Assembly: GCA_964016885.1 (NCBI GenBank)
Contig: OZ024742.1
Coordinates: 223,944,001 to 224,008,000, forward strand
Origin: Eledone cirrhosa
Taxonomy: Eukaryota
Length of the DNA: 64,000 nucleotides
Reading direction: 5' to 3'
The position numbers were made by a program, and so were the translations under genes. The notes under the pieces were generated by a model. That model did not search any database. It saw nothing but the letters and a program-made list of their open reading frames with translations, and had not been told where the DNA came from. This document shows positions 799 to 61,720 of the stretch, piece after piece (positions within the stretch are counted from its first letter, which is position 1; every line of letters starts with the position of its first letter).

Positions 799-998
799 NN
801 NNNNNNNNNNNNNNNNNNNNNNNNNNNNNNNNNNNNNNNNNNNNNNNNNNNNNNNNNNNNNNNNNNNNNNNNNNNNNNNNNNNNNNNNNNNNNNNNNNNN
901 NNNNNNNNNNNNNNNNNNNNNNNNNNNNNNNNNNNNNNNNNNNNNNNNNNNNNNNNNNNNNNNNNNNNNNNNNNNNNNNNNNNNNNNNNNNNNNNNNN
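799..998. other. Assembly gap (200 N)
   Basis: Run of n. Confidence 1.
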
Positions 999-3191: not shown

Positions 3192-3625
3192 TTATAAACC
3201 GTTATGACTTTTTAGGCCCAACAGTTGATAAGAGACGTCAAAAATTAAGGCCTGATTGTTTAATGTTTTTTTCCTGACTTTTTGCGAGGCTTGGAATGTA
3301 GACAAAGCTTTATGAAGGCAGTTTGAGAATAATTCACTTTTTTTGTTAATTAAGTTTTCATAATTAGTAATTATTAATAGGGTCTCCTTTGTACAGAGGT
3401 TGCAGTTAGTTGATATAGAGAGGTTCGTATATATTTTACTATTACAAAGCTTCATCCAAAAGATCGAATATTTTAAATTTTTGTCTTTTAATGACCATAT
3501 AACTTGTGATAAAGAAGTCGAAGACTTCCTATTAAAATTCGATAATGAGCATTTGTGATTCGCAAATCTCGATTTAAATGTCGAAGAAGTTGCTCCTATG
3601 TAGTTGTATGTGTTGTTATTTGTTG

Positions 3626-13223: not shown

Positions 13224-13660
13224 TTAGCTGTATACTTTATGGAATGTTCTGTGGAATTTATGCAAGAAGAGAGAAAATAAGTCAGTGCGTCTATTTATTA
13301 TAGAATCTAAATTAGATATAATGGTAAATTTCTCACATAAACAAATATTACATATTTTGGATAGAGAGGCATTCAAGTATGGAAAGACAGAACAAACTTT
13401 CCTCCAAGAGATGTTATAGTTAATATTTTTGTCTTTCAAGGACCATATGAGTTCTGAGAGTGCCGTGTTGGTTCTTTTAAGTTAGTATTTAAAAGAAGAA
13501 TGATGATTATAAAGACGAGCTTTAAAGGAGGTGGAAGTGGAGCCAAAATAGGTAAAGGAATTGGTGTCAGTTATAACATTACATTCATAGACTAAGTTCT
13601 TTTCAAGACAATGGTTGTTGAGAGGACATTTATTTTTAACAGGGCAATTACAATTGCGAT
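13224..13660 (-). pseudogene. PLE GIY-YIG endonuclease remnant (frameshifted)
   Basis: Cys-rich linker, LVY..YFG, R..NH and CxxCxxEK motifs read across frames. Confidence 0.82.
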
Positions 13661-14610
13661 TAGAGAAATTAACAGAGTTATTAACAAGTGACCTAGTGTT
13701 ATCTATAGGAGGAATTGGATTGGAGAAGTTATTTACGAATAATAGTTTCTTGATTTAGAATGGTATTAAGAACATTTAACGAAGTTGCGTTTAACGTCGT
13801 ATTGGGGTTTGCAGAAATTAGCCTAGAGTTAACAATGACGTCGGGAGTACTACTGCTATTATTATGATATTCAGTGTTGGAAGGAAGAGATTTAGTATTT
13901 AGTATTTTATTGTTGTGTTTAGAGATAATGTTGGAGATGTTGGAGGAGGTGGAATAGGAAAATGTTATAGTATGTTTGTTTCTCTTCATTAATTTTCAAA
14001 TTCTTTTAAATTATATATTATCTTCCAACGGCTTTTTAACCTCTCTCTGTAAAACAATATATATTTTTCTCAGTTATAAAGGCTCTCTCTCTCTTTCTAT
14101 CACCCATCTCTCCTCCTATCTCATCCTTCCTTATTATACTCCTCCCCCACCATTTTTTACTCTCATCTCCTCCTCTTTTTCATCCTTTCCACCCCCCCCC
14201 CCCTCATTTTTTTCCCAATATCACACATCAATCTTAAATTACTTTTCATATGTTGATTTAAAACTGCACTATTCACAAGTGTTTTTTAACCTTCATATCT
14301 TTATCCCTATTTTATCTGACGGAAACGCAAATGTCATCGCATGATGATATTTGTTTTTGAAATGCGCATAATAAAATACATGGAACTCTTTTAACCATCT
14401 TTTGATCTTATATTATATATATATATATAGTAATAATAATAAATGTGAGGACTAAAATCCAAAGAGGGCTCGATAAGGATAAATATATATCAAATATATA
14501 AGAACCCTAGAGCAAATATTTATTAAAATAACAGATTAAAGTTTAAGCAAAGAATCCCTGCCTTCACCCTTAAGCAGCGATTCTTTGCTTAAACTGTAAT
14601 CTGTTATTTT

Positions 14611-39055: not shown

Positions 39056-39750
39056 TGAATAAGAAAATGCGAAGTGGTTGTAGATGTTAAGTCCTTTATT
39101 GTTAAGGCTGTGATACATATTTCAGTGACGACAGTGGTCACGTGATTTCACGGAACCAGTGTCGTGAACTCATCAGACAGCTTCATTACATAATAAGATT
39201 ACTTTGCGGGCAACGGTCAATTCTATTGTCCAAACATAAATTAGAGGTAGTAGTGAAACATATACCCTACCACAGAGTTCTGGTCGGCTGTTGCAGGACG
39301 TGGGACTAGCAGTAAACTATAACTTATTGGCTGACTTGAACTTTGTGACCATGTCACCTCTCCGGTTGGGACGGGGGAGATTGGTTGTGGGAGAGGATTG
39401 CCTGGGTAGTAATTAGATTGTCAACTTCCTTCACATTTGCGCCTGCACAAAGCTGTGGAGAGGAATTAGGGCTCACAAGGGAACGGGCAAAGGCTTCAAA
39501 AACATCATCTTTGTCCGTTTTCTTACCGTTTTATTTTGGATTGCCTTGAGAACGTAACCTTATTATGTAATGAAGCTGTCCGATGAGATCACGACACTGG
39601 TTCCGTGAAATCACGTGGTCACTGTCGCCATTGAAATACGTATCATAAAATCTACAACTTTGCATTTTCTTATTCTAAATATACCCCGTCATTCCTATTT
39701 GGAAAAAGCACGTAGAGTGGTTGAATTGAATTGCATCAATATTTACCGTA
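39055..39750. mobile_element. Foldback insertion with long-stem-II hammerheads (- 39107-39181; degenerate + 39575-39647)
   Basis: Inverted arms 39055-39197 / 39559-39677; gctgt-CTGATGA-[about 50-nt hairpin]-GAAA-T-atgt-A-TC-acagc. Confidence 0.82.
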
Positions 39751-39774
39751 AGTATACATACATACATACATACA

Positions 39775-39808
<34 letters not shown>

Positions 39809-39809
39809 C

Positions 39810-39868
<59 letters not shown>

Positions 39869-39870
<2 letters not shown>

Positions 39871-41235
39871 CGAATCAGTGGAGGATCAGTAACATCGTCC
39901 CAGTGCCAAAGAAGGGAGATCTCTCTAACACCAACAACTACCGGGGGATCTCACTGACGTCACTTGTGGCAAAGACCCTCAACAGGATGATTCTTAACAG
40001 GATCCAGCCTGAGATGGAGAAGAAGCTCAGGGACAACCAGAACGGCTTCAGAGAGGGTAGATCAACCACCAGTCACATCCTGATGCTGAGGAGGATATTA
40101 GAGGGAGCTAGAGCAAAGAGCCTTCCTGCGGTCATGGTTTTCATTGACTTTAGGAAGGCCTTTGATTCTGTGGACCGTTACTGCCTGATGAAGATCTTAC
40201 AGGCTTATGGAATCCCCAAGAGGATAGTGGACCTGATATCACTGCTCTACACCAACACCAAAGCCCAAGTCATTACACCTGATGGGATGACAGAGTTCTT
40301 TGAGATACTGGCTGGAGTGCTCCAGGGAGATACATTAGCTCCCTACCTTTTTATCATCGTAGTGGACTATTGTATGCGCCTTGCACTGGAGAAATACCAG
40401 GACACTGGCTTTACTGTAGCACCGGCTCAGAGCAGGAGAGTTGGGGCGAAAAAGGTATCGGATGCTGAATTTGCCGACGACATAGTTTTGGTGACAAATA
40501 TAGTGAAGGAGGCAGAGGATTTGATGCGGGAGGTTGAGACTGTGTCGATGAGTGTGGGGCTGAGAATGAATGAGACTAAAACAAAATATCTGGTAGAGAA
40601 TGTTGAGAAGCCAGAGGGGATCACTAATGTAGGCGGGAAGCCGCTGGAATTGGTTGAGGACTTCCTGTATTTGGGAGCAAAGATTGGGAATACGGAAGAT
40701 GATGTGGTTGAGAGGAAGAGCAAGGCCTGGGCGGCGTGTCACAGCTTGAGATCGGTGTGGAAGTCGGACCTTCGTAGAGACCTGAAGGTCCGCCTCTTCA
40801 TTGCTGTAGTGGAGTCTGTGCTGCTGTATGGGTCTGAGACTTGGACACTGACCAAGAGACTCACTCAGATGGTGGATGGGTGCTACACGAGAATGCTGAG
40901 GATGGCTCTGAACATTAATCAGTATACACTGAGGATGAAAAACTCAGAGCTGTATGGGAGCATCCCAAAAGTCAGCTCAAAAGTGACACAGAGGAGACTG
41001 AGGTTGGCTGGACATGCTCACCGACATCCAGAGTTGACATTGCACTCAGTGCTCCTTTGGGAGCCCCTACATGGTCACACTAGAAGAGGAAGACCAAGGT
41101 TAACATATGTTGATGCCCTAAGGACAGACACTGGTCTGTTGGAGATGCAGGATATGGCAGCGATAATGAGGGACAGAGACCGCTGGAGAGAACTCGTCCA
41201 TGGATCTCGGGAATTTTACCCGCCTTAGATAGATA
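39869..41235 (+). mobile_element. 5'-truncated RTE/RTEX-like LINE with uninterrupted RT, within (TA)n
   Basis: PKKGD..NYRGISL, QNGFR, FIDFRKAFDSV, GVLQGD.LAP, FADD, FLYLG, YGSETW, RRLRLAGH; the first about 85 aa of ORF 39615 are spurious. Confidence 0.93.
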
Positions 41236-41246
41236 TATATATATAT

Positions 41247-41930
41247 ACAAGTATATTACACAAATAGAAGTGTGTTAAACAGTGAAATGTGTGTAAAGGA
41301 TTATTACAAGTGATTTTTACCGTTACTGTATAGAAAACAATATCTACAGGTTTAGCAATTAAATGCAAAAAACCTAAGTCAGAATCCAATTACTGAAGTA
41401 GAGTTTTAAATTACTAACCTTATAACTATAAGTTTGCTGATACGAATTAATTTTGTTTCGCCACAGAAATATGCAGTCTAACAGCCACAGGTTCATCAGT
41501 CAGCAAATGTGGATTCTATTTACTACACATCTAGCCTCATGGATAGAGAGAAAGCTAATATACACGCTGCCCAGGGTAGGGCGAAATCACGTGTTATTTG
41601 CATCAAATAACGGTTCTCATGGATTGGGGAAAATGCTAGAGAGAGCAGCCCAACCATTCGAATTTATTAGCTCAACAATTTGGAGCTCGTTAAGTATACT
41701 AGGATCGGAATTAAGAGTATCCGCAGTTCACAGTAAAAATAATAATAATAATAATATTAGCTCAAAGAAGAATACAGTAACGGTAAAAATCACTTGTAAT
41801 AATCCTTTACACACATTTCACTGTGTAACACACTTCTATTTGTGTAATATACTTGTATCCGAGCTCAGAAGAAAATTCTCTATTCTTCTTTGAGCTAATA
41901 TTGTTATTATTATTACTGTGAACTGCGGAA

Positions 41931-41933
<3 letters not shown>
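41247..41933. mobile_element. Head-to-head insertion of an about 552-nt circularly permuted unit with hammerhead (- 41433-41507)
   Basis: 41247-41330 inverted at 41773-41856; 41718-41774 inverted at 41881-41932; tttgctga-CTGATGA..GAAAC..GTA-tcagcaaa (stem II weak). Confidence 0.75.
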
Positions 41934-41966
<33 letters not shown>

Positions 41967-41972
<6 letters not shown>

Positions 41973-44900
41973 TATGAAGAGAGAAGAAACATTTAGATAT
42001 AATTAGTAATAAAATGTATCATACCTAAACTGTTCCTAAATTCCTCGACTACGTAGTTTCGTGGCATAAACAAAAACAATATATCAAAGATATAGAGTCC
42101 TTGCGAGGTCTGCCGACTTATCAAGAGGATACCTCATTTGACTAGTCTCAAGAACGCGTCTACACGACGTGAGAAAGAATCCCAAAAGGCGGAGGGGGAG
42201 ATAGTCACGCGATATAACGGTCGAGAAACAGAGCTAAGCCTCTTATAACCACGAAGAAAATACCACGGAGGCGGAGGGGGTATTCATATCGAGGCCGTAG
42301 AAGAGGTAGTGAAGAAGGCGAGAAGTATGAGTAATGGAAGCTTTCCAGTTGTCCCCACACTTCAAAGATTGCTCGACCAGAGGGAGTTATTAATATATTT
42401 AGAAACACACAGATACATGCGGACACTCACATATATACATGAATGCATCCGCACCCAACTGTGAGTTAAGGGTGCCAACTTCACCGATGTTGCTCAATGA
42501 ATGACTGGGACAGACACAATTCAGTTTGAACCAGACTGAACCAGTATCAGAGTTAAAAATACATTATGAAGAGAGAAGAAACATTTAGATATAATTAGTA
42601 ATAAAATGTATCATACCTAAACTGTTCCTAAATTCCTCGACTACGTAGTTTCGTGGCATAAACAAAAACAATATATCAAAGATATAGAGTCCTTGCGAGG
42701 TCTGCCGACTTATCAAGAGGATACCTCATTTGACTAGTCTCAAGAACGCGTCTACACGACGTGAGAAAGAATCCCAAAAGGCGGAGGGGGAGATAGTCAC
42801 GCGATATAACGGTCGAGAAACAGAGCTAAGCCTCTTATAACCACGAAGAAAATACCACGGAGGCGGAGGGGGTATTCATATCGAGGCCGTAGAAGAGGTA
42901 GTGAAGAAGGCGAGAAGTATGAGTAATGGAAGCTTTCCAGTTGTCCCCACACTTCAAAGATTGCTCGACCAGAGGGAGTTATTAATATATTTAGAAACAC
43001 ACAGATACATGCGGACACTCACATATATACATGAATGCATCCGCACCCAACTGTGAGTTAAGGGTGCCAACTTCACCGATGTTGCTCAATGAATGACTGG
43101 GACAGACACAATTCAGTTTGAACCAGACTGAACCAGTATCAGAGTTAAAAATACATTATGAAGAGAGAAGAAACATTTAGATATAATTAGTAATAAAATG
43201 TATCATACCTAAACTGTTCCTAAATTCCTCGACTACGTAGTTTCGTGGCATAAACAAAAACAATATATCAAAGATATAGAGTCCTTGCGAGGTCTGCCGA
43301 CTTATCAAGAGGATACCTCATTTGACTAGTCTCAAGAACGCGTCTACACGACGTGAGAAAGAATCCCAAAAGGCGGAGGGGGAGATAGTCACGCGATATA
43401 ACGGTCGAGAAACAGAGCTAAGCCTCTTATAACCACGAAGAAAATACCACGGAGGCGGAGGGGGTATTCATATCGAGGCCGTAGAAGAGGTAGTGAAGAA
43501 GGCGAGAAGTATGAGTAATGGAAGCTTTCCAGTTGTCCCCACACTTCAAAGATTGCTCGACCAGAGGGAGTTATTAATATATTTAGAAACACACAGATAC
43601 ATGCGGACACTCACATATATACATGAATGCATCCGCACCCAACTGTGAGTTAAGGGTGCCAACTTCACCGATGTTGCTCAATGAATGACTGGGACAGACA
43701 CAATTCAGTTTGAACCAGACTGAACCAGTATCAGAGTTAAAAATACATTATGAAGAGAGAAGAAACATTTAGATATAATTAGTAATAAAATGTATCATAC
43801 CTAAACTGTTCCTAAATTCCTCGACTACGTAGTTTCGTGGCATAAACAAAAACAATATATCAAAGATATAGAGTCCTTGCGAGGTCTGCCGACTTATCAA
43901 GAGGATACCTCATTTGACTAGTCTCAAGAACGCGTCTACACGACGTGAGAAAGAATCCCAAAAGGCGGAGGGGGAGATAGTCACGCGATATAACGGTCGA
44001 GAAACAGAGCTAAGCCTCTTATAACCACGAAGAAAATACCACGGAGGCGGAGGGGGTATTCATATCGAGGCCGTAGAAGAGGTAGTGAAGAAGGCGAGAA
44101 GTATGAGTAATGGAAGCTTTCCAGTTGTCCCCACACTTCAAAGATTGCTCGACCAGAGGGAGTTATTAATATATTTAGAAACACACAGATACATGCGGAC
44201 ACTCACATATATACATGAATGCATCCGCACCCAACTGTGAGTTAAGGGTGCCAACTTCACCGATGTTGCTCAATGAATGACTGGGACAGACACAATTCAG
44301 TTTGAACCAGACTGAACCAGTATCAGAGTTAAAAATACATTATGAAGAGAGAAGAAACATTTAGATATAATTAGTAATAAAATGTATCATACCTAAACTG
44401 TTCCTAAATTCCTCGACTACGTAGTTTCGTGGCATAAACAAAAACAATATATCAAAGATATAGAGTCCTTGCGAGGTCTGCCGACTTATCAAGAGGATAC
44501 CTCATTTGACTAGTCTCAAGAACGCGTCTACACGACGTGAGAAAGAATCCCAAAAGGCGGAGGGGGAGATAGTCACGCGATATAACGGTCGAGAAACAGA
44601 GCTAAGCCTCTTATAACCACGAAGAAAATACTACGGAGGCGGAGGGGGTATTCATATCGAGGCCGTAGAAGAGGTAGTGAAGAAGGCGAGAAGTATGAGT
44701 AATGGAAGCTTTCCAGTTGTCCCCACACTTCAAAGATTGCTCGACCAGAGGGAGTTATTAATATATTTAGAAACACACAGATACATGCGGACACTCACAT
44801 ATATACATGAATGCATCCGCACCCAACTGTGAGTTAAGGGTGCCAACTTCACCGATGTTGCTCAATGAATGACTGGGACAGACACAATTCAGTTTGAACC

Positions 44901-45040
44901 AGACTGAACCAGTATCAGAGTTAAAAATACATTATGAAGAGAGAAGAAACATTTAGATATAATTAGTAATAAAATGTATCATACCTAAACTGTTCCTAAA
45001 TTCCTCGACTACGTAGTTTCGTGGCATAAACAAAAACAAT
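41967..45040 (-). mobile_element. Retrozyme-like tandem array, about 5.2 copies of a 592-bp unit (left arm)
   Basis: Exact 592-bp period; hammerheads at 42042-42129, 42634-42721, 43226-43313, 43818-43905, 44410-44497 and a partial one at 45002-45040. Confidence 0.9.
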
Positions 45041-47884
45041 TCCGCCTCCGTGGTATTTTCTTCGTGGTTATAAGAGGCTTAGCTCTGTTTCTCGACCGTT
45101 ATATCGCGTGACTATCTCCCCCTCCGCCTTTTGGGATTCTTTCTCACGTCGTGTAGACGCGTTCTTGAGACTAGTCAAATGAGGTATCCTCTTGATAAGT
45201 CGGCAGACCTCGCAAGGACTCTATATCTTTGATATATTGTTTTTGTTTATGCCACGAAACTACGTAGTCGAGGAATTTAGGAACAGTTTAGGTATGATAC
45301 ATTTTATTACTAATTATATCTAAATGTTTCTTCTCTCTTCATAATGTATTTTTAACTCTGATACTGGTTCAGTCTGGTTCAAACTGAATTGTGTCTGTCC
45401 CAGTCATTCATTGAGCAACATCGGTGAAGTTGGCACCCTTAACTCACAGTTGGGTGCGGATGCATTCATGTATATATGTGAGTGTCCGCATGTATCTGTG
45501 TGTTTCTAAATATATTAATAACTCCCTCTGGTCGAGCAATCTTTGAAGTGTGGGGACAACTGGAAAGCTTCCATTACTCATACTTCTCGCCTTCTTCACT
45601 ACCTCTTCTACGGCCTCGATATGAATACCCCCTCCGCCTCCGTGGTATTTTCTTCGTGGTTATAAGAGGCTTAGCTCTGTTTCTCGACCGTTATATCGCG
45701 TGACTATCTCCCCCTCCGCCTTTTGGGATTCTTTCTCACGTCGTGTAGACGCGTTCTTGAGACTAGTCAAATGAGGTATCCTCTTGATAAGTCGGCAGAC
45801 CTCGCAAGGACTCTATATCTTTGATATATTGTTTTTGTTTATGCCACGAAACTACGTAGTCGAGGAATTTAGGAACAGTTTAGGTATGATACATTTTATT
45901 ACTAATTATATCTAAATGTTTCTTCTCTCTTCATAATGTATTTTTAACTCTGATACTGGTTCAGTCTGGTTCAAACTGAATTGTGTCTGTCCCAGTCATT
46001 CATTGAGCAACATCGGTGAAGTTGGCACCCTTAACTCACAGTTGGGTGCGGATGCATTCATGTATATATGTGAGTGTCCGCATGTATCTGTGTGTTTCTA
46101 AATATATTAATAACTCCCTCTGGTCGAGCAATCTTTGAAGTGTGGGGACAACTGGAAAGCTTCCATTACTCATACTTCTCGCCTTCTTCACTACCTCTTC
46201 TACGGCCTCGATATGAATACCCCCTCCGCCTCCGTGGTATTTTCTTCGTGGTTATAAGAGGCTTAGCTCTGTTTCTCGACCGTTATATCGCGTGACTATC
46301 TCCCCCTCCGCCTTTTGGGATTCTTTCTCACGTCGTGTAGACGCGTTCTTGAGACTAGTCAAATGAGGTATCCTCTTGATAAGTCGGCAGACCTCGCAAG
46401 GACTCTATATCTTTGATATATTGTTTTTGTTTATGCCACGAAACTACGTAGTCGAGGAATTTAGGAACAGTTTAGGTATGATACATTTTATTACTAATTA
46501 TATCTAAATGTTTCTTCTCTCTTCATAATGTATTTTTAACTCTGATACTGGTTCAGTCTGGTTCAAACTGAATTGTGTCTGTCCCAGTCATTCATTGAGC
46601 AACATCGGTGAAGTTGGCACCCTTAACTCACAGTTGGGTGCGGATGCATTCATGTATATATGTGAGTGTCCGCATGTATCTGTGTGTTTCTAAATATATT
46701 AATAACTCCCTCTGGTCGAGCAATCTTTGAAGTGTGGGGACAACTGGAAAGCTTCCATTACTCATACTTCTCGCCTTCTTCACTACCTCTTCTACGGCCT
46801 CGATATGAATACCCCCTCCGCCTCCGTGGTATTTTCTTCGTGGTTATAAGAGGCTTAGCTCTGTTTCTCGACCGTTATATCGCGTGACTATCTCCCCCTC
46901 CGCCTTTTGGGATTCTTTCTCACGTCGTGTAGACGCGTTCTTGAGACTAGTCAAATGAGGTATCCTCTTGATAAGTCGGCAGACCTCGCAAGGACTCTAT
47001 ATCTTTGATATATTGTTTTTGTTTATGCCACGAAACTACGTAGTCGAGGAATTTAGGAACAGTTTAGGTATGATACATTTTATTACTAATTATATCTAAA
47101 TGTTTCTTCTCTCTTCATAATGTATTTTTAACTCTGATACTGGTTCAGTCTGGTTCAAACTGAATTGTGTCTGTCCCAGTCATTCATTGAGCAACATCGG
47201 TGAAGTTGGCACCCTTAACTCACAGTTGGGTGCGGATGCATTCATGTATATATGTGAGTGTCCGCATGTATCTGTGTGTTTCTAAATATATTAATAACTC
47301 CCTCTGGTCGAGCAATCTTTGAAGTGTGGGGACAACTGGAAAGCTTCCATTACTCATACTTCTCGCCTTCTTCACTACCTCTTCTACGGCCTCGATATGA
47401 ATACCCCCTCCGCCTCCGTGGTATTTTCTTCGTGGTTATAAGAGGCTTAGCTCTGTTTCTCGACCGTTATATCGCGTGACTATCTCCCCCTCCGCCTTTT
47501 GAGATTCTTTCTCACGTCGTGTAGACGCGTTCTTGAGACTAGTCAAATGAGGTATCCTCTTGATAAGTCGGCAGACCTCGCAAGGACTCTATATCTTTGA
47601 TATATTGTTTTTGTTTATGCCACGAAACTACGTAGTCGAGGAATTTAGGAACAGTTTAGGTATGATACATTTTATTACTAATTATATCTAAATGTTTCTT
47701 CTCTCTTCATAATGTATTTTTAACTCTGATACTGGTTCAGTCTGGTTCAAACTGAATTGTGTCTGTCCCAGTCATTCATTGAGCAACATCGGTGAAGTTG
47801 GCACCCTTAACTCACAGTTGGGTGCGGATGCATTCATGTATATATGTGAGTGTCCGCATGTATCTGTGTGTTTCTAAATATATA
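45041..47884 (+). mobile_element. Retrozyme-like tandem array, about 4.8 copies of the same 592-bp unit (right arm, inverted)
   Basis: Hammerheads at 45187-45274, 45779-45866, 46371-46458, 46963-47050, 47555-47642; ends in (TA)n. Confidence 0.9.
45187..45274 (+). ncRNA. Variant type I hammerhead ribozyme (representative of 10 full copies)
   Basis: tcctc(I)-TTGATAA-gtcggca(II)..44-nt loop..tgccac-GAAA-C-tacgta-G-TC^-gagga(I); predicted cleavage after 45269. Confidence 0.75.
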
Positions 47885-47900
47885 TATATATATATATATA

Positions 47901-48833
47901 TTTCGTTTCTGAATTTGTTTAGCAAGATTCTTTATCTGAAAACGTGTGTTGAAACCGATATTGTTATACTTTGGGAGGGTCATGTTGCCAATAAGAAACA
48001 CACGCACCAGTTGCTTTCACTTCAATTTATTATAATAAATTTAGGAATTTATAAATTTCCGGAATTTATAAATTTCCTGTATAGATAAGAAATGTATAAT
48101 CTGTAAATTAAGCCCCCATATTAACTGTAAAACTAGAAATGTAGTATATAGCATAAGATGTACTGAAGGACAATGTAGAGATAAAAAATATAGTGTACAT
48201 AGGTGAGACAGCTCGTAGTATAGGGGAACGGATAAATGAACACTGGCGAGACCTTCAAGATAGTAAATAATCATCTGTACTCTACCAACATGCTAAAATA
48301 AAACATAAGGGTAAATTAGAGAACATAGAAATAAAAATAGAATCTACACACAGAAAAGACGCAATGTTTAGACAAATCACAGAGGCAATAAACATAAATG
48401 AATTACAACCAAAATTAAATAGAAAACATGAGTGGAACAGCAACATCACAACTTACAATTAAGGACAAAATGAAAGCACACACGCACATAGAACAAACAA
48501 CCAACCAGTAACATGTAAATAAACAAATAAATAAACGAATATAAACACACACAGACACCCGGATGTAACACATGCGCAAACTAAGCACACAACACACACA
48601 AAAAAACAAGATGGCGTAGGACAGAACAAAGGAGAGGCACAAAAAACAAAGAAAAGAACCCCCAGTCACTGAAAAGGTCACAGAATGTGTGACGAAAGAA
48701 CTTTGATAATATATAAACAACCATCTGGTTGTGGAACCAACCAACCGGAAATTTATAAATTTATTATAATAAATTGAAGTGAACACAACTGGTGCGTGTG
48801 TTTCTTATTGGCAACATGACCCTCCCAAAGTAT

Positions 48834-48840
<7 letters not shown>
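47901..48840 (+). mobile_element. PLE 3' portion (frameshifted GIY-YIG) with inverted 3'-end arm
   Basis: CIICK..INCKTRNVVYSIRC..LYQHA..H..RQITEA..LNRK (48090-48440), homologous to ORF 56166; arms 47958-48040 / 48755-48840; hammerhead-like 48666-48706 (CTGAAAA, gtcaca/tgtgac, GAAAGAACTT). Confidence 0.85.
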
Positions 48841-48908
<68 letters not shown>

Positions 48909-55609: not shown

Positions 55610-57345
<1,736 letters not shown>

Positions 57346-57899: not shown

Positions 57900-60800
57900 A
57901 TGTGTTGGAGTAGTGGGAGTTGTATGAAGGGGTGGTACAGGTGGAGAAGGTGGTGGTGATGATGATAGTGGCTGTGATGATAGTGGTGGTGACGTTGGGG
58001 GTATTGCTATTGTCGTTGTGAAGATGGTGGTGATGATAGTGACTGTGATGATGGTGCAGATGGTAATGGCGGTGGTGGTGGCGGTGGTGGTGGTGGCGTT
58101 GGGTGTATTGTTCTTGTTGCTGTTGTGAAGATGGTGTTGATAGTGATGGTGATGGTGGGGATGATGGTGGTGGTGGTGACGGTGTTGCTGGTGGTAGTGG
58201 TGGCGTTGGGGGGGGGGGGGTATTGTTATTGTTGTTGTGAAGATGGTGATGATAGTGATTGTGATGATGGCGGTGGTGGCGTTGAAGATGTTAATGGTGG
58301 TGTTGGTGATGGTGGAGGTGGTAGTGATGGTGGAGGTGATGGGGATGGTGGAGGTGATGGTGGAGGTGATGGTGGAGGTGATGGTGATGGTGGAGGTGGT
58401 AGTCATGGTGGAGGTGATGGTGATGGTGGAGGTGATGGTGATGGTGGATGTGGTAGTGATGGTGGAGGTGATGGTGGAGGTGATGGTGATGGTGGAGGTG
58501 ATGGTGATGGTGGAGGTGGCAGTGATGGTGGAGGTGATGGTGATGGTGGAGGTGATGGTGATTGTGGAGGTGATGGTGGAGGTGATGGTGATGGTGGAGG
58601 TGATGGTGATTGTGGAGGTGATGGTGATGGTGGAGGTGATGGTGATTGTGGAGGTGATGGTGATGGTGATGGTGGAGGTGATGGTGATGGTGGAGGTGAT
58701 GGTGATTGTGGAGGTGATGGTGGAGGTGATGGTGATGGTGGAGGTGATGGTGATGGTGGAGGTGATGGTGATGGTGGAGGTGATGGTGATGGTGGAGGTG
58801 GAGGTGATGGTGATGGTGGAGGTGGTAATGATGGTGGATGTGGTAGTGATGGTGGAGGTGATGGTGATGGTGGAGGTGATGGTGATGGTGGAGGTGGAGG
58901 TGATGGTGATGGTGGAGGTGGTAATGATGGTGGATGTGGTAGTGATGGTGGAGGTGATGGTGATGGTGGAGGTGATGGTGATGGTGGAGGTGGAGGTGAT
59001 GGTGATGGTGGAGGTGGTAATGATGGTGGATGTGGTAGTGATGGTGGAGGTGATGGTGATGGTGGAGGTGATGGTGATGGTGGAGGTGGAGGTGATGGTG
59101 ATGGTGGAGGTGGCAGTGATGGTGGAGGTGATGGTGATGATGGAGGTGATGGTGATGGTGGAGGTGATGGTGATGGTGGAGGTGGTAGTGATGGTGGAGG
59201 TGGTTGTGATGGTGGAGGTGGTAGTGATAGTGGAGGTGGTAGTGATGGTTGAGGTGATAGTGATGGTGGAGGTGGTAGTGATGGAGGAGGTGGTAGTGAT
59301 GGTGGAGGTGGTTGTGATGGTGGAGGTGGTAGTGATTGTGGAGGTGATGTTTATAGTGGAGGTGATGGTGGAGGTGGTAGTGATGGTGGAGGTGGTAGTG
59401 ATGGTGGAGGTGATAGTGATGGTGGAGGTGGTAGTGATGGTTGAGGTGATAGTGATGGTGGAGGTGGTAGTGATGGAGGAGGTGGTAGTGATGGTGGAGG
59501 TGTTGGTGGAGGTGTTGGTGATGGTGGAGGTGGTAGTGATGGTGGAGGTGGTAGTGATGGAGGAGGTGGTAGTGATGGTGGAGGTGAAGGTGTTGGTGGA
59601 GGTGGTAGTGATGGTGGAGGTGGTAGTGATGGAGGAGGTGGTAGTGATGGTGGAGGTGATGGTGATGGTGGAGGTGGTAGTGATGGTGGAGGTGAAGGTG
59701 ATGGTGGAGGTGGTAGTGATTGAGGAGGTGGTAGTGATGGTGGAGGTGATGGTGATGGTGGAGGTGATGGTGGAAGTGGAGGTGATGTTTATGGTGGAGG
59801 TGATGGTGATGATGGAGGTGATAGTGATGGTGGAAGTGGTAGTGATGGTGGAGGTGGTAGTGATGGTGGAGGTGGTAGTGATGGTGGAAGTGGTAGTGAT
59901 GGTGGAGGTGGTAGTGATGGTGGAGGTGATGGTGATGGTGGAGGTGGTAGTGATGGAGGAGGTGGTAGTGATGGTGGAGGTGATGTTTATGGTGGAGGTG
60001 ATGGTGGAGGTGATTGTGGAGGTGGAGGTGATGGTGATGGTGGAGGTGATGGTGATGGTGGAGGTGGTAGTGATGGAGGTGGTAGTGATGGTGGAGGTGA
60101 TGTTTATGGTGGAGGTGATGGTGATGGTGATGGTGGAGGTGGTAGTGATTGTGGAGGTGGTAGTGATGGTGGAGGTGGTAGTGATGGTGGAGGTGGTAGT
60201 GATGGTGGAGGTGGTAGTGATGGTGGAGGTGATGTTTATGGTGGAGGTGATGAAGGAGGTGGTAGTGATGGAGCAGGTGGTGGTGATGGTGGAGGTGAAG
60301 GTGATGGTGGAGGTGGTAGTGATGGTGGAGGTGGTAGTGATTGAGGAGGTGGTAGTGATGGTGGAGGTGATGGTGATGGTGGAGGTGATGGTGGAAGTGG
60401 AGGTGATGTTTATGGTGGAGGTGATGGTGATGATGGTGATAGTGATGGTGGAAGTGGTAGTGATGGTGGAGGTGGTAGTGATGGTGGAGGTGGTAGTGAT
60501 GGTGGAAGTGGTAGTGATGGTGGAGGTGGTAGTGATGGTGGAGGTGGTAGTGATGGAGGAGGTGGTAGTGATGGTGGAGGTGGTAGTGATTGTGGAGGTG
60601 ATGGTGGAGGTGGTAGTGATGAAGGAGGTGGTAGTGATGGAGGAGGTGGTAGTGATGGTGGAGGTGGTGGTGATGGTGGAGGTGATGGTGGAGGTGGTAG
60701 TGATGGTGGAGGTGGTAGTGATGGAGGAGGTGGTAGTGATGATGGAGGCGGTAGTGATGGTGGAGGTGATGGTGATGGTGGAGGTGATGGTGGAGGTGGT

Positions 60801-61720
60801 AGTGATGGAGGAGGTGGTGGTGATGGAGGAGGTGATGGTGATGGTGGAGGTGATGGTGGAGGTGGTAGTGATGGAGGAGGTGGTAGTGATGGAGGAGGTG
60901 GTGGTGATGGAGGAGGAGGTGGTGATAGAGGAGGTGGTAGTGATGAAGGAGGTGGTAGTGATGGTGGAGGTGGTAGTGATAGTGGAGGTGGTAGTGATGG
61001 AGGAGGTGGTAGTGATGGTGGAGGTGGTAGTGATGGTGGAGGTGGTAGTGATGGTGGAGGTGATGGTGATGGTGGAGGTGGTAGTGATGAAGGAGGTGGT
61101 AGTGATGGTGGTAGTGATGGTGGATGTGATAGTGATGGTGGAGGTGATTGTGATGGTGGAGGTGATGGTGGAGGTGGTAGTGATGGTGGAGGTGGTAATG
61201 ATGGTGGATGTGGTAGTGATGGTGGAGGTGATTGTGATGGTGGAGGTGATGTTTATGGTGGAGGTGATTGTGATGGTGGAGGTGATGGTGGAGGTGGTAG
61301 TGATGGTGGAGGTGGTAATGATGGTGGATGTGGTAGTGATGGTGGAGGTGATTGTGATGGTGGAGGTGATGTTTATGGTGGAGGTGATTGTGATTGTGGA
61401 GGTGATGGTGGAGGTGGTAGTGATGGTGCAGATGATGGTGATAGTGGAGGTGATGGTGATGGTTGTGATGCTGGTGATAGTGGAGGTGATGGTTACGGTG
61501 GTGGTGCTGGTGGTAGTTATAATATTCTTGGTGGTGCTGTTGGCAATGGTAGTGACGATGGTGGTGATGACGGTGATATTGTTGATGAGGTTGCTGACAG
61601 TAGTGGTTGTGATTATGGTTATGATGATAATGGTGGTGGTGATGCTGGTAGTGGTTGTGATGACGGTTGTGAATATAATAGTGGTGCTGGTGTTGGAGGT
61701 GTTAATGGTGATTGAAAGTG
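57900..61720. repeat. About 3.8-kb GGT/GAT/GGA triplet-based minisatellite (18-bp core gtggaggtggtagtgatg)
   Basis: Direct reading; stop-free in several frames on both strands. Confidence 0.93.

Follow-up and report, generated by a model that had tools for sequence, protein, structure and literature searches.

A young head-to-head array of a hammerhead retrozyme in a (TA)n microsatellite of Eledone cirrhosa and the paired use of two start sites in its family

We analyzed a 64,000-nt stretch of the Eledone cirrhosa genome (assembly GCA_964016885.1, contig OZ024742.1, positions 223,944,001 to 224,008,000), hereafter the window, in which a (TA)n microsatellite is interrupted by two tandem arrays of a 592-nt non-coding hammerhead unit joined head to head. 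By every sequence test run, this array appears to be a real, young and long insertion of a retrozyme without long terminal repeats (non-LTR), made in the style of Penelope-like elements (PLEs) and not itself an autonomous PLE. Two-armed insertions of the same family end at two different internal sites, named A and B, with one arm at each in 79 of the 80 cases in which both ends fall at a site. We consider it likely that a non-autonomous hammerhead retrozyme is inserted in trans by a (TA)n-targeting PLE protein, both DNA ends being extended from two defined RNA sites.

Array structure and paired start sites

A preliminary description of the window had reported an inverted double array of a 592-bp unit, only two substitutions, one hammerhead per unit and no credible open reading frame. 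All of this is confirmed: the copy numbers and the blunt join are given in Table 1, the substitutions at 44632 and 47502 are the only two in the array, a motif scan finds the hammerhead in 10 of 10 complete copies, and the longest ATG-started frames of the unit read as a circle have 28 aa in sense and 45 aa in antisense. At an offset of 592, 2399 of 2400 positions match, versus 567-760 at offsets of 585-599; Tandem Repeats Finder (TRF), with its period limit of 500, misses the array. Units are numbered from the predicted ribozyme cut, window position 45270 being unit position 1. In this numbering sites A and B lie at 80 and 246, and both arm ends run into (TA)n, so that the earlier placement of the two ends in (TA)n about 160 nt apart stands, at 166 nt. 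Since both flanks are (TA)n, a target-site duplication is unreadable. The unit has a GC content of 0.41-0.44 and contains no open frame for a reverse transcriptase (RT) with GIY-YIG, and thus the array is not an autonomous PLE. No LTR-like layout was seen, no search being aimed at a primer-binding site or polypurine tract. The only N run of the window (799-998) is far from the array.

The tight hammerhead pattern has 7,649 matches in the 3.0-Gb genome versus six for a control, and the copies are dispersed, with distinct flanks and junctions at each locus. A positional sample of the first 100 pattern matches, covering the first 53 Mb of C1, yielded 47 family loci, among which 26 are head-to-head pairs and 20 are single arms (nine ending at A and 11 at B), most of them with (TA)n on both sides. 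Genome-wide, exact junctions with (TA)n number 1,861 for site A and 967 for site B, and the controls gave none. Site B is the more variable between subfamilies, its exact end drifting over approximately 246-254.

The pairing of the two sites was counted in several ways. Among 77 loci, 43 filtered head-to-head pairs comprise 40 A+B, no A+A, no B+B and three with an off-site end (p = 9e-13); this count requires arms of at least 84% identity, drops L126 (B+A), includes the duplicated L135 once and sets aside L131, L150 and L159. For an older subfamily of about 70% identity, 40 loci were judged by eye in a set that was ranked on a query ending at B and is hence biased to contain a B end: 24 are A+B, one is B+B (L115), three (L079, L099 and L116) are probably A+B but short or interrupted, and the others of the 16 not scored as A+B are single, cut or complex. 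Without alignment, 19 of 19 outward-facing pairs among the junction matches listed are A+B, 15 of them new, with no A+A among the 100 A ends listed and no B+B among the 100 B ends listed. The preliminary description had also attributed the ends to TA-like microhomology, and this part of the claim is not supported: the best TA run of the unit, which ends at 208, provides the outer end in 0 of 40 A+B loci, and site A, an end in all 40, is outside the 25 best TA-like positions. TA likeness does not select the start sites. A predicted hairpin precedes each site by about 10 nt, and sites A and B of the older subfamily share, on our own reading, a 16-nt motif at 13 positions. At L034, L107 and L112, a few ends near unit position 495-503 perhaps mark a minor third start site.

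The two arms of one locus agree at 754 of 760 diagnostic comparisons, versus 25% discordance between loci. At young loci, identical pairs account for 15 of 17 comparisons within a locus and 55 of 356 between loci, and at four loci both arms carry variants absent from every other sampled locus. The two arms normally represent one event and one template haplotype. Haplotypes are fixed across all units of a locus, and loci with zero or two changes already hold 2-5 units, in the window in both arms; arms of the older subfamily were seen up to about 1.6 units in the selected set. The window locus is second longest of 40 measured and is unremarkable apart from its youth and length. The longest is a two-armed 8-kb array on C12 (L063/L064; G000 C12:14090584-14098602) with 6.0 + 7.6 units of a 591-nt variant.

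Among 40 junctions, with ends taken from BLAST, 27 have an overlap of 1-6 nt, five are blunt, two have a longer overlap and six carry inserts. The 5' ends are not clustered (Kolmogorov-Smirnov (KS) p = 0.26), none of 80 lies within 5 nt of the ribozyme cut, 42 of 80 arms are longer than one unit, and 36 of 40 B arms run beyond 256 nt, through site A. The lack of 5' ends at the cut, together with the 42 arms exceeding one unit, therefore points to a circle or an uncut multimer as the template. Paired 5' ends lie within 15 nt of each other at four of 40 junctions, one of which is exactly palindromic, versus 2.1 expected, and the distances between them fit a uniform spread (KS p = 0.28). No length bias between A and B arms was detected (Wilcoxon p = 0.89).

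Table 1. Features of the array and its immediate neighbours (window coordinates)
Feature	Position	Strand	Remarks
Left arm	41967..45040	-	3074 nt, 5.19 units; 3' end = site A (unit position 80) at 41967; 5' end = unit position 559
Right arm	45041..47883	+	2843 nt, 4.80 units; 5' end = unit position 364; 3' end = site B (246) at 47883
Head-to-head junction of the 5'-truncated arms	45040..45041		Blunt, 0 gap/0 overlap; non-palindromic (unit positions 559 and 364)
Left part of the (TA)n target	41934..41966		TRF run 41934-41969 overlaps the last bases of the element
Right part of the (TA)n target	47884..47901
Private substitution	44632	-	G>A on ribozyme-sense strand
Private substitution	47502	+	G>A on ribozyme-sense strand
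Predicted monomer, cut to cut	45270..45861	+	592 nt, strongly self-paired
Type I hammerhead, one of 10 complete copies	45187..45274	+	Motif scan, covariation
Other hammerhead motif starts	45780, 46372, 46964, 47556	+	Motif scan
Other hammerhead motif starts	44496, 43904, 43312, 42720, 42128	-	Motif scan
Hairpin, then start site A	45270..45349	+	Site at 45349 in this unit; predicted fold, genome-wide junctions
Hairpin, then start site B	45440..45515	+	Site at 45515 in this unit; predicted fold, genome-wide junctions
Left neighbour, unrelated second retrozyme-like family	41245..41933		~529-nt unit; two-armed, two different ends
Right neighbour, 5'-truncated PLE	47901..48841		Inverted copy, 57-nt tail at one end

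Hammerhead ribozyme and monomer RNA

The hammerhead occurs five times per arm, intact in every complete copy, and nowhere else in the window under the strict descriptor of the motif scan. In the copy at 45187-45274, helix I is formed by 45187-45191 and 45270-45274, the core UUGAUAA occupies 45192-45198 and GAAA 45256-45259, helix II is long, and a palindromic 10-nt helix III (45259-45268) precedes a predicted cut after 45269. The ribozyme is thus not of the minimal kind, having both the long helix II and a U3-A8 core in place of C3-G8. A U3-A8 core has been reported in Schistosoma PLEs, and the build with a palindromic helix III is said to act as a dimer (PMC4209133).

Rfam gave no gathering-score match in the window, and on 45041-46300 none of its hammerhead families reached E<=10, so the hammerhead call rests on the motif scan and on covariation. 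In 19 diverse copies selected from the family, 91.8% of cells are paired, and cells changed on both sides number 27 versus 12.7 in shuffled data (0/500), far above slid controls, with contributions from helices I, II and III; two measures that count pairs or pair types were no higher than in shuffles. Because the copies are related, this covariation is support rather than proof. Helix III takes three different palindromes within the family. Four further loci (L117-L120) belong to separate hammerhead families that share the U3-A8 core and have a palindromic helix III of different sequence, L117 having a period of about 560 and ending in (TA)n; no attached PLE frame was found at these four loci. 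The monomer folds better than shuffled sequences (z = -5.8 in linear form; z = -5.1 as a circle, the latter with 30 shuffles), whereas the ribozyme region alone, folded freely, does not (z = -1.1). The array hammerhead is predicted to self-cleave, which would yield linear and circular monomer RNA.

Near-identical sequences of one unit (44644-45235) are present in public runs of 16 studies under many organism codes, with no RNA run listed among them. The three runs that give contigs carry the 591-nt variant, which is also present in the Eledone cirrhosa genome; related species, mixed samples or transfer may each account for this. In run X1 the unit forms one 621-nt contig closing on itself, and the unit-to-unit joint is also present in run X8; neither was used as evidence for a circle, because these may be DNA runs and a tandem DNA array gives the same picture. 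Contigs of run X2 end in (TA)n seven times at A and five times at B, which is support from outside the assembly for the two ends only, from a run that may be of the same species.

Neighbouring insertions and a PLE chimera

Positions 39600-48880 of the window form one microsatellite cluster with four stacked insertions, namely a non-LTR RT frame, two retrozyme families and a PLE, separated from each other by (TA)n. The RT frame (39873-41225, Pfam RVT_1) is presumably RTE-like. The left neighbour of the array, a second retrozyme-like family with 1,082 candidates, has a canonical CUGAUGA core at 41499 on the minus strand and an 8-bp helix I; its two ends are about 77 nt apart, one of each being used in 8 of 8 two-armed loci. 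The right neighbour has a GIY-YIG remnant at approximately 48080-48460 and, near 48660-48710, a minimal hammerhead that differs from that of the array. Its family comprises 3,213 candidates, with RT and GIY-YIG below the Pfam cut-offs in a longer copy. The two ends of this family are separated by 57 nt, and 6 of 6 two-armed loci combine one with the other. A second PLE family with 4,931 candidates, which we take to be Neptune-like from its cysteine linker, has one of each end in 13 of 13 loci; 15 of its 28 loci are without two readable ends, and some stretches between arms are outside the reference. Beyond the main family, i.e. in the second retrozyme family and two autonomous PLE families, the one-of-each rule thus holds in 27 of 27 loci.

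At one locus (L060/L185; L060:1-2490; G000 C2 near 1,176,000-1,178,500) an arm of the second PLE family stands head to head with a retrozyme arm of the old subfamily. The truncated PLE arm ends at its short site and the retrozyme arm at B, both in (TA)n, and this chimera fits the one-of-each rule in trans. Among the 40 single-armed retrozyme loci checked, the other 39 had no second arm from five reference elements; in the 28 loci of the second PLE, the retrozyme unit is seen only as separate insertions or in this chimera; and no PLE frame lies in line upstream of the unit in the loci tested.

Elsewhere in the window, a truncated PLE at 56232-57145, with a protein 57% identical to that of the right neighbour's family, lies beside a long (TA)n run, and two further GIY-YIG remnants occur on the minus strand (3291-3599 and 13242-13730). 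In addition, a G-rich unit of 18 nt is tandemly repeated over 3.2 kb at 58295-61506, where GC skew is extreme.

Mechanism, alternatives and relation to known elements

The preliminary description had proposed a retrozyme-type unit targeted to (TA)n by PLE machinery, with a cDNA growing from each end of a break and the two being joined afterwards, and this outline is supported. We propose that a tandem locus is transcribed and that its hammerheads, dimeric via the palindromic helix III, would cut the transcript into 592-nt monomers to be ligated into circles, as in known retrozymes. A PLE RT/GIY-YIG protein, probably a dimer, would bind the RNA at the hairpin-adjacent sites A and B, which like the target are read from genomic junctions, and cut both (TA)n strands. 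Reverse transcription would then start from both DNA 3' ends within a single coordinated event, site A serving one end and site B the other, normally with one template haplotype for both, as the pairing and haplotype data indicate. Each RT passes the ribozyme site and the start site of its partner, as the arms show, and may continue for several units; its template would be a circle or an uncut multimer. A circular template copied by rolling circle is plausible and, in our view, likely. The two cDNAs would stop at random places, in agreement with the scattered 5' ends, and be joined blunt or via 1-6 nt of microhomology into head-to-head arms. A single arm would result if one DNA end is not extended.

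Several observations weigh against this mechanism. Cleavage, the monomer RNA and the circle are predictions, and the A and B hairpins rest mostly on one-sided changes, both sides being changed in 1 of 17 and 1 of 25 pairs. L115 (B+B) and the few ends near unit position 495-503 break the pairing rule. The chimera was found once among the 40 single-armed loci and may reflect a deletion that fused two adjacent insertions; no PLE with this unit as a terminal repeat and no partner PLE for the young subfamily were found, the terminal-repeat comparison covering the neighbour PLE and the second PLE family. Arm lengths are weakly related (rho 0.30, p = 0.06), and with no clear correlation they do not speak for a joint advance of two enzymes. 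Each arm of the C12 locus carries three linked private changes once, two units out of register, and at L042 one change is present in four inner units only; these patterns point to a linear multimer, to later conversion or expansion, or to an assembly error. For a PLE in vitro, the strands showed no start-site difference and uncut RNA was the main substrate (PMC11167929).

Some of these points favour an alternative that retains the two-site PLE mechanism but takes as its template the uncut linear transcript of a long tandem locus, a multimer, instead of the monomer circle. This we consider possible but rather unlikely. It agrees with the three-change block at the C12 locus and with the in vitro system, in which ribozyme mutants left insertion unaffected (PMC11167929). 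Nevertheless, copying from a linear array can only make it shorter, but young loci free of mutations have several units already; other private changes at the C12 locus do not line up between the arms, all units of a locus share its haplotype, the fold of the monomer is far stronger than that of shuffles and the ribozyme covaries. It is improbable that short two-armed insertions grew later by unequal exchange or slippage, making the long arms a satellite-type expansion rather than long cDNA: the four inner units of L042, the conversion-like sharing at the C12 locus and the short arms of the older subfamily agree with such growth, but loci with zero or two changes are already at 2-5 units, in the window in both arms. 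An assembly artefact, either a fold-back chimera or a collapsed repeat, is hardly credible. The window structure was read from the assembly alone and the copy number of near-identical arrays can be misassembled; however, dozens of loci with different junctions and flanks, some of them 30% diverged, are all A+B, the arms are not mirror images, and the X2 contigs end in (TA)n at both sites.

The remaining alternatives concern the priming of the second arm. The preliminary description had the two ends primed independently at TA-like microhomologies, in keeping with the short TA-like stretches in which both sites end and with the shift of the end at B between subfamilies. Independent priming predicts that about half of the pairs are A+A or B+B, whereas one of 80 is, and because 79 of 80 are A+B the arms were not primed independently; the best TA run is unused and the arms share a haplotype. 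This explanation is already refuted by the pairing counts, unless the samples are unrepresentative, and retains almost no probability. Fold-back or self-priming on an antisense template, a model put forward for PLE inverted repeats (PMC3846280), is very unlikely here: it could account for the four junctions with 5' ends at most 15 nt apart, the exact palindrome among them and the likewise palindromic excluded locus L159, but 2.1 such junctions are expected by chance, the distances fit a uniform spread, the window junction is 195 nt off a palindrome, and the different fixed sites at the arm ends are left unexplained. The mostly non-palindromic junctions argue against antisense self-priming and fold-back artefacts alike. 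We find it similarly doubtful in the extreme that a long interspersed element (LINE) mobilized the unit by L1-style twin priming, which yields inverted, truncated L1 copies (PMC2837659), although the microsatellite cluster of the array also contains the end of a non-LTR RT frame: both retrozyme ends are fixed internal sites without a 3' tail, two GIY-YIG PLE families have an identical layout, and the sole chimera found is with a PLE.

Beyond the proposed trans-insertion by a PLE protein, we tentatively suggest, as an extension that may well not hold, that the PLE dimer is obligately asymmetric and loads both start sites of one RNA, one per cut DNA end. On a circle this would amount to a double rolling circle, in which two chromosome-anchored RTs chase each other round one 592-nt RNA and displace each other's cDNA; the one-of-each rule might then explain in general why PLEs leave an inverted copy and a tail at one end, and the chimera would be direct genomic proof of a PLE moving a retrozyme.

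In L1 twin priming, first priming takes place at the poly(A) tail and the second at a variable internal site, and the arms barely overlap. The retrozyme shares with it two primers and inverted 5'-truncated arms joined by short microhomology (PMC2837659), but in the retrozyme neither site is variable and one sequence recurs many times in the arms. Described metazoan non-LTR retrozymes (PMC7229834; PMC7761336; bioRxiv 10.64898/2026.07.22.740005) resemble the present family: their tandem unit is non-coding and has a single type I hammerhead, GC is below 50%, copies are dispersed and numerous, the monomer is strongly self-paired and PLEs coexist with them. The preliminary description had considered the unit unusually long, which does not hold: 592 nt is ordinary because 51-972 bp is already in print for animal retrozymes (bioRxiv 10.64898/2026.07.22.740005). 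Unlike retrozymes as described in the available texts, about half of the loci here are head-to-head double arrays, two fixed internal ends are used one each, the (TA)n target is strict and without visible duplication, and the hammerhead has a U3-A8 core and a long helix II. Endonuclease-positive (EN+) PLE insertions (PMC8557442, PMC3846280) share partial tandem and inverted 5'-truncated copies, a one-end tail, the (TA)n preference and a hammerhead with palindromic helix III; they differ in that the retrozyme lacks an RT or GIY-YIG frame, has a tail of 166 nt versus 30-40 bp, may have many units in both arms and has mostly non-palindromic junctions. The Poseidon PAc protein in vitro (PMC11167929) likewise cuts and extends both strands, uses two internal start sites that bound the tail, has an AT-rich target and is a predicted dimer; its strands did not differ in start site, and that study does not address pairing at the ends of one target, whereas the genomic events here are 79 of 80 A+B.

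PLEs are known for an inverted 5'-truncated copy, a tail often at one end only and a (TA)n bias, and how they make tandem or inverted insertions is described as still undefined (PMC8557442). The movement of animal retrozymes by PLEs rests, as presented, on co-occurrence and terminal-repeat similarity (bioRxiv 10.64898/2026.07.22.740005; PMC7229834; PMC7761336), and the 2026 preprint models the retrozyme as a derivative of a PLE terminal repeat (pLTR) (bioRxiv 10.64898/2026.07.22.740005). The bidirectional geometry, at first thought undescribed, is thus textbook for PLEs; for retrozymes, the open-access literature without supplements yielded no report of inverted or two-site arrays. Retrozymes themselves, the inverted copies and tails of PLEs and the use of two start sites are already known, whereas the PLE signature on a retrozyme, strict one-of-each pairing counted across many events and arms of several units on either side were not found in that literature.

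The array in the window is one large copy of an abundant non-coding repeat that is often written in from both sides of a break, and it ties such repeats to Penelope-type transposons. All features of the PLE insertion signature are found on the retrozyme, different start sites serve the two ends of one break, and the junctions are left unexplained by fold-back. Thousands of young ORF-free copies provide a clean statistical read-out of PLE insertion and turn an open PLE mechanism into a sharp prediction for an already existing in vitro system. Thus, the importance of the finding lies in a testable mechanism and not in a single locus.

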